Positions 11,719 to 42,991 are shown, counted from the first letter of the stretch. The stretch is 64,000 nucleotides of DNA from a virus (IMGVR_UViG_3300043391_000370:1-64000); one strand, 5' to 3'. A program made the numbers and translations. The notes: generated by a model from the letters alone, not told the origin.

Positions 11719-11793
11719 TAGCGGTGATGAGATTCGAACTCATACTGTCGAAATTTTAAGTTTCGTGCCTGCTGCCAGTTGGGCTACACCGCC
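11719..11793 (-). tRNA. trnL: tRNA-Leu(UAA), short variable loop
   Basis: Acceptor GGCGGTG/CACCGCT, discriminator A; anticodon arm CGAAA-CTTAAAA-TTTCG; T-arm ATGAG-TTCGAAT-CTCAT. Confidence 0.9.
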
Positions 11794-39526: not shown

Positions 39527-40196
39527 ACTGCTCAAGTTTATCTCCAACAAATTTTCTAATATATTGGACGAGCAATTTAAGGTACTTTGCTTTGTCGTAT
39601 TCTTCATAAACTACACATTCTCCATTTTCACAAGACATAATGATAACAAATTTTTTGACTGATACCCCAGTCAGTTCGTAGTACATTGCAGCATAAGCAC
39701 AGCACTGAACGAAATAATGATCGATCCAATCTCTTGGTTTCGGTTTCTTAGAAGTCTTAAAGTCGATGATTGCTAATTCACCATTATACTCGGCAATGCA
39801 ATCAACAGTTCCTGCAATACCTAATTGCTTACTATATAGGGAACCTTCAAGAGAGTGAATATTATCAATATTCTTGAGAGTTGACTTCGCAATATTAAAC
39901 AGAAACTCTGAGATTGGAAGAATATCTGTAGGAAGATCATGATTTTTCAGAAAATACTCAGTAAGAGTATGCATATCCGTACCACGACTTGTTGCAAGTT
40001 TTGTGATACGGTCTGCTTCCTCATCTCCAACTTTCTTCCTCCACTTCACAAAGATTTCTTTATTAAAATGACTTGTGATAGAAGTGATTGAAACTAGTTT
40101 GAGTAGTTCTTCATCATCAGGTACTTTATAATATCGAATACCATCTATAGTCTCCCGATCAAGTTTCGGGAGAGTCACATCAATATGATTGAACAT
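39516..40196 (-). CDS. PD-(D/E)xK exonuclease (Cas4-like superfamily)
   Basis: RGT.MH, AG.VDCIAEY.G.LAIIDFKTS, Q..AYA.M. Confidence 0.85.
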   Translation of the reverse strand: MFNHIDVTLPKLDRETIDGIRYYKVPDDEELLKLVSITSITSHFNKEIFVKWRKKVGDEEADRITKLATSRGTDMHTLTEYFLKNHDLPTDILPISEFLFNIAKSTLKNIDNIHSLEGSLYSKQLGIAGTVDCIAEYNGELAIIDFKTSKKPKPRDWIDHYFVQCCAYAAMYYELTGVSVKKFVIIMSCENGECVVYEEYDKAKYLKLLVQYIRKFVGDKLEQYGT

Positions 40197-40954
40197 TAAA
40201 ATCCTTCTTCAATTTTAGCAATAAGATACTGACGAACTAATCCAGAACGGACAATATCATCGACACCAAACTCTATTATATCAAAAGAATCCATTTTACG
40301 CAAGACACTCATAAAATCAATAATTCCATTCTTCTCACTTGTTTTTACAAGGTCTGATTGAGTAGCATCTCCACAGAACATAATCTTACAATTTTCACCA
40401 ACACGAGTAATAATAGAATCTAATTCGTGAAAATTAAGGTTGGCAAACTCATCTACAAGTACAATACAATTATCCAGAGTAACTCCACGAAGAAAAGAAG
40501 TAGACCAGAACTTAATCGTCTCTTGTGATTTAAGATTGCCATAGAGCATCTCAAACTCAACATCAGAAGGCATTTGGAACATATACTTCACCATATTCTT
40601 ATAAGGAATCTGGTAGATGTCTGCCTTATCATCGTGAGAACCAGGAAGAAATCCAATTTCTCTTGTAGGAACTAATGACCTTACAATATAAACTTTTTCA
40701 TAAGGAGTTCTTTCATCCAGCACTTCTTTTAGAGCATTATAAAGAGTGATGAAAGTCTTACCAGTACCTGCACATCCATAGGCAACAAGATGCTTACCTT
40801 CGGCATATGCATCAAAAAGTTTTCTTTGATTGTCTGTAAGGGGATCAATATCTAATAGATATTCACTCCCAAGTGCTTTCTTTCTTTTCATCTGACGAGT
40901 TGTAAGACCAACACCGATTGGTTGGTCATTCGTCGTTCTTTTTCTTCTTGCCAT
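40196..40954 (-). CDS. phoH: PhoH-family ATPase
   Basis: GCAGTGKT, RSLVPTREIGFLPG, STSFLRGVT, VDEFANL, GD..QSDL. Confidence 0.95.
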   Translation of the reverse strand: MARRKRTTNDQPIGVGLTTRQMKRKKALGSEYLLDIDPLTDNQRKLFDAYAEGKHLVAYGCAGTGKTFITLYNALKEVLDERTPYEKVYIVRSLVPTREIGFLPGSHDDKADIYQIPYKNMVKYMFQMPSDVEFEMLYGNLKSQETIKFWSTSFLRGVTLDNCIVLVDEFANLNFHELDSIITRVGENCKIMFCGDATQSDLVKTSEKNGIIDFMSVLRKMDSFDIIEFGVDDIVRSGLVRQYLIAKIEEGF

Positions 40955-41236: not shown

Positions 41237-41989
41237 TTAAGGACTCAAACGTGCCTTATGAAGTCTCTTCTCTTCATAATATGCCCAAATACTTGGAGTC
41301 CATTTTTGGAGTTCGGGTGCAAAAGAATCGCATAATGCTTGAATCTCAAGTTGAGCATCAAGTTTAGAACGAAGATCCATAAAGTGAAGTACAGAACGAA
41401 GGTTGAATGAAACTACAAAGTTCTGACGAATTGCTTGTGCAAGATAATCACGAATATGCTCTTCACACATACCTTTATCATACTTCACGGCATAACGCTT
41501 ACACCCCTCTACAATCCACTGTAGTTCATCTTGTCGATCTTCTCCTGTCCACTCATACTTCTTACCTTTACGGTTAGTATAGAACCCCACAGGTCGCACA
41601 TAGAAGACTTCTTCAACATCCAGTTCTCCACTGGCAACTTTGACTACACGCTTACCGGTATAACGTTGAGATTGAACATCCCAAGTTGTTCCAATACGAT
41701 GAGTTCTTGCCTGAACGATCACATTATGAACAAATCCAGCACAAGAAAATGTAATTTGTGGATGCTCCAAAGGCCCCCAATGTCCTCTTTCATTTGCCAA
41801 AAGTTGTTCTACAACCCACTCACCACATTTTTGATTGCTAGGAACTTCCACTTGATGAATTGGAACTTCAGAATAATCACCCTTACCTGCTTGCCAAATT
41901 ACTTGTTCTGGGGTTGGGTAGCATTGAAGTTTTACTACCTCAAGATTCTTATCAAGTTCAAGTAGATCTTTTGATTTAATAGGTCTCAT
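41237..41989 (-). CDS. thyX: FAD-dependent thymidylate synthase ThyX
   Basis: GHWGPLEH, RTHRI...DVQSQRY, FNLRS..HF.DLR. Confidence 0.9.
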   Translation of the reverse strand: MRPIKSKDLLELDKNLEVVKLQCYPTPEQVIWQAGKGDYSEVPIHQVEVPSNQKCGEWVVEQLLANERGHWGPLEHPQITFSCAGFVHNVIVQARTHRIGTTWDVQSQRYTGKRVVKVASGELDVEEVFYVRPVGFYTNRKGKKYEWTGEDRQDELQWIVEGCKRYAVKYDKGMCEEHIRDYLAQAIRQNFVVSFNLRSVLHFMDLRSKLDAQLEIQALCDSFAPELQKWTPSIWAYYEEKRLHKARLSP

Positions 41990-42141: not shown

Positions 42142-42293
42142 TCTAAATCCTCAAAAATTTCGTCGTAATCTAACTCTTTTGGTGTAATATCATCAAATTG
42201 ATATGCCTGAACATCAGAATATAATTCTGCTTTCAGGGAATCTACAAGAAGTTCTAAATTACGGACAATTAGTTTTAGTTTGTCTTTGTCCAT
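42138..42293 (-). CDS. Small hypothetical protein, 51 aa (MDKDKLKLIVRNLELLVDSLKAE...)
   Basis: Hand-translated; follows the promoter at 42315-42343. Confidence 0.75.
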   Translation of the reverse strand: MDKDKLKLIVRNLELLVDSLKAELYSDVQAYQFDDITPKELDYDEIFEDLE

Positions 42294-42314: not shown

Positions 42315-42350
42315 ATTCTACATAAAAAAAGGAGACCTGTCAAGGTCTCC
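42315..42350 (-). terminator. Intrinsic terminator overlapping a sigma70-like promoter
   Basis: GGAGACC-TTGACA-GGTCTCC-T7 hairpin; its loop is a -35 box spaced 17 nt from TAGAAT (42315-42320). Confidence 0.75.
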
Positions 42351-42356
42351 AGTAAA

Positions 42357-42449
42357 TCAACGCATTGCCATTGCAAGTTTTGCTTGATGTTTGCGTTGCT
42401 CTTTTTCTTTTTGTTGTTTGATTAAAATAAGTTGCCAATTGTTTTTCAT
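42357..42449 (-). CDS. 30-aa basic, Gln/Lys-rich peptide (MKNNWQLILIKQQKEKEQRKHQAKLAMAMR) downstream of the riboswitch
   Basis: Hand-translated; strong RBS AAGGAG at 42457-42462. Confidence 0.75.
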   Translation of the reverse strand: MKNNWQLILIKQQKEKEQRKHQAKLAMAMR

Positions 42450-42480
42450 AAGAGGTGCTCCTTTACTTTGTGGGTATTGG

Positions 42481-42538
42481 TGCGTTCCTTCGGTATTCCT
42501 ACTTCCGTTTGCTATTCGCAAATAGCAAATGAACGTTC
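42481..42538 (-). ncRNA. Glutamine riboswitch (glnA-class RNA motif)
   Basis: P1 CGTTC/GAACG; A; P2 TTTGCTATT-TGCG-AATAGCAAA; CGGAAGTA; P3 GG-AATA-CC; GAAGGAACG. This matches the glnA consensus CGUUCA..CGGAAGUA..GAAGGAACG. Confidence 0.85.
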
Positions 42539-42541
42539 GAT

Positions 42542-42549
42542 TATTTATG
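42542..42549 (-). promoter_or_regulatory. Late-type promoter / -10 element CATAAATA
   Basis: Ends a few nucleotides upstream of the riboswitch 5' end. Confidence 0.55.
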
Positions 42550-42559
42550 ATTTTTATTC

Positions 42560-42575
42560 TGTAACAAATGATACA
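42560..42575. promoter_or_regulatory. NtcA-binding box
   Basis: TGTA-ACAAATGA-TACA, a perfect TGTA-N8-TACA palindrome. Confidence 0.7.
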
Positions 42576-42634
42576 AAATTAAAAACCTTCGTGTGAGAAA
42601 ATTTTGGGGAGATTTTTTCCCACTATTTTGGAAA

Positions 42635-42991
42635 TCACTTCCGCTTTTTCTTTTCGGGTGCTTTGTATCCCCAGATTCTTGGATTTACTTTACCATAACC
42701 CCAGGCAATTTTCTGAACTGCTCCGTGACCGAACTTATCAAAATATAAATCAAAGATTTTTACTTTACTTCCACGGCAAAGATCCATATAAGTTTCATCC
42801 TTAACAATATAAGTTACGATATAGGCATCAAGGGGAAATGATGGATCCTTGAGTTGTTGTAGTGTTGCTTTTTCTAAAAGAATTTCACATCCATAACGGG
42901 AAGGAATATCTTTCTTTTCTTCTGCCGTCCATTCCACAGTTGTTTTTTCCTCTGCGACACTGCTGGTTTTACTCACGAACGACCACCCCAA
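42635..42991 (-). CDS. Conserved hypothetical cyanophage protein
   Basis: 118-aa ORF with FD.YYD-like and GYG..NP..WG motifs. Confidence 0.7.
   Translation of the reverse strand: MGWSFVSKTSSVAEEKTTVEWTAEEKKDIPSRYGCEILLEKATLQQLKDPSFPLDAYIVTYIVKDETYMDLCRGSKVKIFDLYFDKFGHGAVQKIAWGYGKVNPRIWGYKAPEKKKRK

Follow-up and report, generated by a model that had tools for sequence, protein, structure and literature searches.

A conserved cyanophage cassette that places a 30-residue peptide behind an NtcA-type box and a glutamine riboswitch

The cassette and its control elements

The window analyzed here, a stretch of 64,000 nucleotides, comes from an IMG/VR virus record of 81.7 kb with a completeness estimate of 38%, and S-SRM01, a freshwater Synechococcus phage, is its nearest match among the isolates of the phage collection. 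A cassette of about 250 bases, adjoined by the T4-like cyanophage genes phoH (40196-40954) and thyX (41237-41989), lies between a gene for a 118-amino-acid protein (stop at 42635) and the next gene (ATG at 42293); all cassette coordinates refer to the minus strand of the window. It is set apart from the 118-amino-acid gene by a hairpin 3′ of that gene (42605-42622), the CCCCAAAATTTTCTCAC context of which is also found in the related loci L005, L123, L129 and L149. Every part listed for this stretch in the first-pass annotation, namely the box, the riboswitch, the AAGGAG ribosome-binding site, the peptide as quoted and an intrinsic terminator, has been located. Related phage loci were collected by scanning viral contigs for the aptamer core (at least 120 loci) and for leaders of the window type (32 loci). 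The parts are conserved among these relatives and are therefore probably functional, and sequence comparison supports the view that the cassette is a real, conserved, stand-alone unit with control elements like those of the cyanobacterial gif genes.

The first of these elements, identified by motif search, is the NtcA-type operator TGTA-N8-TACA (42560-42575; TGTATCATTTGTTACA), which is the perfect palindrome reported earlier at that position. Its GTA-N8-TAC core spans 42574-42561, and a −35-like TTGTTA (42567-42562) lies within it. The motif occurs four times in the window against 1.8 expected, and the box is not significant by itself, but the cassette copy is the sole intergenic one, the other three lying inside long ORFs. 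Its placement is conserved: among the matches listed for 138 distinct phage aptamer units, GTA-N8-TAC is found 38-39 nt before CGTTCA in 24, every other offset occurring four times or fewer, and 22 of the 27 distinct leaders sharing the 12-nt sequence AGUAAAGGAGCA have the box at this offset (it lies elsewhere in three and is absent from two). In the alignment of related leaders, variation is free within the N8 but absent from the GTA and TAC half-sites, as is characteristic of a palindrome to which a protein binds. The box lies 24-25 nt upstream of the P1 stem of the aptamer, and its center (42567.5) precedes the first base of P1 (42535) by 32.5 nt, so that the earlier figure of 28-30 nt to the riboswitch was close but slightly short. 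A different arrangement is seen in the cassettes that encode subtype C of the peptide family described below (L006, 2098-2290, and L127), in which the box is 59 nt upstream of the aptamer and is followed by a complete TTGACT-17-TAGGAT promoter and an additional hairpin, with no terminator immediately 3′ of the ORF; this geometry may entail a different response to NtcA.

The aptamer (42479-42537) is a type-1 glutamine riboswitch (glnA RNA, RF01739) with an extended 9-bp hairpin. The Rfam covariance model matches 42537-42479 on the minus strand with 56.3 bits, against a gathering score of 35, and an E-value of 1e-9; the match is full length (model positions 1-53 of 53), includes every conserved core base and is returned unchanged when the whole virus record is searched, in agreement with the glnA-class riboswitch that had been proposed at 42481-42538. 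The P1 stem CGUUC/GAACG and the conserved cores ACGGAAGUAGG and CCGAAGGAACGCA are present and invariant in 25 relatives; the hairpin differs among relatives in length and sequence, whereas P1 does not. Besides the aptamer, a single Rfam match was obtained in the window, to a tRNA gene (11719-11793, minus strand, 56.4 bits).

The leader that follows (42450-42478), presumably the expression platform, contains AGUAAAGGAGCA, which does not vary across 25 aligned leaders even though the ORFs they control belong to different families, and the Shine-Dalgarno (SD) sequence AAGGAG (42463-42458) is located 8 nt 5′ of the ATG at 42449. No conserved helix that sequesters the SD sequence was found in the 25 leaders, for which RNAalifold returns the aptamer helices alone. 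Two candidate pairings were rejected: the CCUCUU stretch just downstream, with which the SD sequence pairs in a single-sequence fold, is not conserved, and a hand-built pairing between the 5′ strand of P1 and the SD sequence is lost in variants with a short hairpin. Because there is no conserved SD-sequestering helix, the direction of the switch is assigned solely by analogy, according to which glutamine binding would turn the phage gene ON.

Between the box and the aptamer lies an AT-rich, −10-like block, CATAAATAAT (42540-42549), which can be read as ATAAAT or AATAAT and also fits the late-type consensus NATAAATA. Alignment of the relatives places an AT-rich, −10-like hexamer 10-12 nt past the box and 7-9 nt before CGTTCA in every related leader. 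If this conserved block is the −10 element, transcription would start at approximately 42536, 1-3 nt before P1, and the center of the box would fall at about −29.5 to −31.5; the value near −30 follows from taking the block as the −10 element. The centers of NtcA repressor sites are at −30.5 in Synechocystis gifA, −28.5 in Anabaena gifA and −7.5 in gifB, and activator sites are centered at −41.5 (PMC6316151). The predicted position of the phage box is that of a gifA-type repressor site, and neither that of an activator nor that of the cellular gifB type; the repression-compatible position claimed in the first-pass annotation is thus supported, given the same reading of the AT-rich block. An activator geometry for NtcA, with 22 nt followed by a −10 element, was considered and rejected because the start site would fall about 10 nt inside the aptamer, within P1.

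The promoter element CATAAATA that had been proposed is present (42549-42542) and fits NATAAATA, but its promoter class is not confirmed, because the T4-late core ATAAATA is kept in just 5 of the 27 related leaders. A T4-type late promoter is the less probable reading of this element, the core being missing from the other 22 leaders and the spacing between box and aptamer being kept.

A box adjoining a type-1 glutamine aptamer is also found at 56 cellular cyanobacterial loci. In 47 of them, box and aptamer are separated by a gap of 15-17 nt and the −10 element (TATAAT or TAGAAT) lies within the box, and the ORF in loci with this gap is a full-length or short DUF4278/gifB homologue. Because the box overlaps the −10 element in these 47 loci, the pairing of an NtcA box with a glutamine aptamer appears to be a recurrent repressive design. 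The phage cassette differs from these gifB-type cassettes in its spacing and seems to combine a gifA-type operator position with a gifB-type riboswitch; therefore, it is no simple copy of a cellular gifB leader.

Seven nucleotides past the stop codon of the ORF begins an intrinsic terminator (42324-42350; GGAGACC-TTGACA-GGTCTCC followed by T7), with an 8-bp GC stem and a predicted energy of −13.5 kcal/mol. Of 23 distinct relatives, 21 likewise have a terminator 3′ of the ORF, and the stems stay paired despite their different sequences. The loop sequence TTGACA is at the same time the −35 element of the next gene, the TAGAAT of which follows the T-run with 17-nt spacing to give a sigma-70-type promoter, TTGACA-17-TAGAAT (42315-42343; 11 of 12 matches). 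Both features recur in the relatives, as TTGAC(A) within the loop and as TA(G/A)AAT past the T-run, and the interleaved terminator and promoter are found, with different stem sequences, in most related loci.

The peptide and its host counterpart

The ORF (42357-42449) consists of 30 codons (42449-42360) and a stop codon (42359-42357), and encodes exactly the 30-residue peptide quoted in the first-pass annotation, which is basic (+6) and rich in glutamine. Members of its family were found at 33 phage loci and fall into three subtypes that are joined into one family by intermediates from a library of 1.8 billion proteins: subtype A, with 30-32 residues, includes the window peptide, subtype B has 26 residues and starts with MALILIK, and subtype C has 33 residues. 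Subtype A has a pN/pS of 0.09, with 7, 0 and 19 variable columns at the first, second and third codon positions; in subtype B, the corresponding values are 0.20 and 9, 5 and 18. These substitution patterns support the conclusion that the ORF is genuinely coding and its peptide under purifying selection. AlphaFold2 predicts a single helix from residue 2 to residue 29, with a pLDDT of 92. Searches of Pfam, NCBIfam and PDB sequences with the peptide gave no match, and Pfam remained empty at E-values up to 10 for 15 family members. PHROGs returned weak matches alone (phrog_545, E = 0.0065, and phrog_5136), and the ESM Atlas returned no informative neighbors, its coiled-coil-like look-alikes having chance-level scores.

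The ORF of most sister cassettes encodes a YRG-repeat protein that matches DUF4278 (PF14105). Assignment of the window peptide to DUF4278 was nevertheless rejected, as Pfam gave no match and hhalign against the phage DUF4278 proteins gave a probability of 0.1%. For comparison with IF17, 16 full-length homologues from the cellular loci were used, with inclusion of the IF7-like C-terminal part (KAR-LMM-NRH-x-VK-x-RQQSML), which carries the arginines that bind glutamine synthetase (GS). A relationship to IF7 or IF17 was likewise discarded (hhalign, 0.1-0.2%), and the profile comparison with IF7, IF17 and DUF4278 that had been suggested earlier finds the peptide similar to none of them. Since similarity to DUF4278 and IF17 is lacking, action of the peptide on GS is a matter of speculation.

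Counterparts of the peptide are found in the hosts. A search with the peptide profile of 401 sampled genomes of the cyanobacterial phylum gave nine weak matches, all in genomes of 1.5-3.3 Mb, which is the picocyanobacterial range. Seven of the nine start 15-25 nt past a Glutamine-II riboswitch (RF01704, 38-45 bits), a context that provides independent evidence that these weak matches are real. An hhalign comparison of the phage family with the host helix gives 94.5% (E = 8.3e-8) over 25 columns. When the search was widened within the same cyanobacterial family, the module was found in 82 of 251 sampled genomes, and 16 of 20 tested host loci were directly behind RF01704. The module is N-terminal and has the motif LxLI[KR]-x4-K-x2-R-x3-A-[QKE]-[LF]-x-MA, which is present in the window peptide; the window ORF starts 29 nt after RF01739, within the distance of 15-30 nt from a glutamine riboswitch that was taken as typical of the module. 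Some of the host picocyanobacterial cassettes also have a perfect NtcA box beside the aptamer.

The host proteins, annotated solely as "hypothetical", occur in three forms: the helix alone (33 residues), the helix with an HSEGIDYTSAH tail (45-48 residues) and the helix fused to YRG/DUF4278 repeats (57-62 residues), in which DUF4278 matches residues 24-57. In one phage protein (L013), the order is reversed, the helix following the YRG motif. The helix module itself has no match in Pfam, NCBIfam or PDB. The window peptide ends in LAMAMR at the point where the fused host proteins run on as LMAKAYRG, and this end, together with the homology, indicates that it consists of the helix module alone. 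To judge from these alignments, the peptide is the viral copy, in shortened form, of a helix encoded downstream of the hosts' own glutamine switches. The same comparisons support the identification of some of the host homologues with the DUF4278 "IF17-like" proteins of Klahn (2018).

In the same cyanobacterial family as the host matches, four loci (L297-L300) have type-1 aptamers with the P1 stem CGTTG/CAACG. Upstream of each come TTGACA and a perfect GTAGCAAyTGCTAC box, the box at a distance of just 9 nt. These aptamers control a basic micro-protein of 39 amino acids (MSIITVHYLQRHREEAARRAKELAYRRR...), which is a further unannotated type of riboswitch-linked peptide.

Relation to known systems

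The closest likeness in regulation is to the gif genes of Synechocystis sp. PCC 6803 (PMC6212724, PMC6316151). They share with the phage cassette a GTA-N8-TAC operator in a repressor position, which in gifA is at −30.5 and in the phage is predicted at about −30, a gene for a small protein with a type-1 glutamine riboswitch in its 5′ UTR, as in gifB, and the apparent logic of making the product only when nitrogen is plentiful. The gif-like control claimed for the cassette is borne out to the extent that an NtcA-type box in a predicted repressor position, retained in 22 of 27 leaders, is combined with a type-1 glutamine riboswitch. Unlike the gif genes, the unit is phage-borne, and its 30-residue product has neither DUF4278 nor an IF7-like region.

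In its product, the cassette resembles a subset of the picocyanobacterial "Downstream-peptide" genes (PMC2864571), to the N-terminal helix of which the phage peptide is homologous; these genes are also monocistronic with their own terminator, and some have a perfect NtcA box near the aptamer. However, the host genes found in this analysis use the type-2 aptamer (RF01704) and the phage uses type 1, and the host products of 33-62 amino acids carry extra tails or YRG/DUF4278 repeats, whereas the phage product is the helix alone. Of 429 Downstream-peptide ORFs, 360 have the YRG motif according to Weinberg et al. (2010), and a description of the helix module was not found in their paper (PMC2864571).

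Among phages, the DUF4278 (YRG) cassettes of L002, L083, L086, L097, L103, L114 and S-SRM01 have a homologous promoter, box, aptamer and leader, with the 38-39 nt spacing and AGUAAAGGAGCA, but they code for a YRG/DUF4278 protein where the window codes for the helix peptide. The position of the cassette beside thyX and phoH is syntenic in S-SRM01, in which, in contrast to the plain single aptamer of the window, the aptamer is split around a 55-codon ORF. In that phage (L121, MW015081.1; 3140-3480), the NtcA-type box GTATCGGTTGCTAC is followed by a sub-threshold aptamer (28.9 bits), the 3′ half of which seems to be displaced by about 150 nt downstream, so that it encloses the ORF QPX47982.1; the YRG ORF (MSQVVYRGVPYDT...) comes after the split aptamer. 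This is a layout with a gene inside a glutamine riboswitch. In L131 and L133, which belong to subtype B, a second, degenerate aptamer-like element (CGTTCA...GGCGGAAGTAA...GGAACGGATCGT) is located directly upstream of the main aptamer, and the arrangement represents tandem or interlocked forms.

Phage aptamers of the RF01739 type have been described in T4-like cyanophages (PMC9964418) and in the methylophage Melnitz (PMC9004378). Those reports concern the RNA alone or a link to tmRNA, and describe neither an NtcA box nor a regulated micro-protein. In the literature searched, no description was found of a phage unit of NtcA box, riboswitch and micro-protein, or of the helix module.

Regulatory logic and possible function

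The most probable reading, to which a probability of roughly 60% may be assigned, is that the cassette is a monocistronic phage gene built for expression only in a nitrogen-replete host, by means of NtcA repression and a Gln-ON switch, with the helix as its product. Transcription would start a few bases from the aptamer, and an NtcA operator at about −30 would occupy the −35 region and the spacer. At high 2-oxoglutarate, that is, under nitrogen limitation, host NtcA would bind and block the promoter, as at gifA, and bound glutamine would, by analogy with gifB, permit translation from the AGUAAAGGAGCA ribosome site. The transcript would stop at the intrinsic terminator, and the product would be a basic α-helix of 30 residues. 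NtcA repression and the Gln-ON switch would together act as an AND gate for nitrogen sufficiency. A coherent AND gate of this kind, with NtcA repression and a Gln-ON switch, is known from gifB, where the switch is needed for the synthesis of IF17 (PMC6212724). The peptide would most likely bind the same host partner as the host module, and through a shared partner the phage could impose a "nitrogen-replete" response on the nitrogen metabolism of the host.

As an extension offered tentatively, the 25-residue helix may be the true effector of an unrecognized family of nitrogen-status micro-proteins in picocyanobacteria, where it follows glutamine riboswitches with or without DUF4278, and in their phages, the minimal, NtcA/glutamine-gated phage version of which takes over host nitrogen control. 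That the phage protein is cut down to a single helix of 25-30 residues points to the helix as a functional unit of the host proteins. If so, the target of the helix could be GS, in a lineage without a demonstrated inactivating factor, or a different target, for example PII, PipX or NtcA.

It is rather unlikely that the peptide is a phage GS inactivating factor, that is, a functional analogue of IF7/IF17 by which host GS would be switched off at high glutamine. The two control inputs are identical in kind to those of the gif genes, the peptide is predicted to be a small basic helix, and the N-terminal part of DUF4278 "IF17-like" proteins is among its host homologues, all of which would suit such a factor. 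However, the hhalign values of 0.1-0.2% were obtained against full-length IF17 with its IF7-like C-terminal part, DUF4278 gave no match, and the picocyanobacterial IF17-like proteins are without the C-terminal residues that are needed for GS binding (Klahn 2018, PMC6212724).

Expression from a T4-type late promoter (NATAAATA), or under positively acting NtcA, with the box timing or boosting expression under nitrogen stress, is distinctly unlikely. NtcA-type boxes have been proposed as drivers of other cyanophage genes, and this reading would account for the position of CATAAATA, 6 nt before the predicted start site, for ATAAATA in five of the 27 relatives and for the full TTGACT-17-TAGGAT promoter downstream of the subtype C box. 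Against it, the late core is missing from the 22 remaining relatives and the spacing between box and aptamer is kept, a box centered near −30 is a misfit to class II activation (−41.5), and activation under nitrogen stress would oppose a Gln-ON riboswitch, so that the gene would almost never be expressed.

That the palindrome is the site of another CRP-family or phage protein, or a mere conserved promoter element, would be compatible with the lack of enrichment of TGTA-N8-TACA by itself in the window, but is very improbable, because fixed GTA/TAC with a free N8 is the NtcA consensus pattern, because the motif precedes glutamine aptamers in the 56 cellular loci and in host picocyanobacterial cassettes, and because NtcA control of gif-type genes in hosts is experimentally established (PMC6212724). 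The proposal that the RNA itself acts, as a glutamine-binding sRNA or decoy with an incidental ORF, draws on the shortness of the ORF and the compactness of the terminator-bounded transcript, and is extremely improbable in view of the pN/pS of 0.09, the distribution of the 26 variable columns, of which 19 fall on third codon positions and none on a second position, the amino-acid motif kept across three diverged subtypes and the host genes, and the invariant, properly spaced SD sequence.

If the preferred reading of a gene reserved for the nitrogen-replete host is correct, phages have taken over a whole control logic, comprising the predicted NtcA operator and the glutamine aptamer. To our knowledge, glutamine riboswitches are the sole RNA sensors of nitrogen status in cyanobacteria. 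The cassette offers a short, synthesizable peptide and a 250-bp control region, and with them a route to the coupling between infection and host nitrogen.

Phage glutamine riboswitches (L001-L120) precede at least six more families of basic ORFs of 30-65 amino acids, examples of which are MNRFDHLHK...NGxGTSGY, MxxYTLWCYKQLIKQ, MTLWxxYCR, MTKYQxxLFxRAVKK...NPFYP and MNYRDFExARKKER...DPRLQKI. Many of the ORFs of these further families lie behind tandem aptamers, and most are without an NtcA box.
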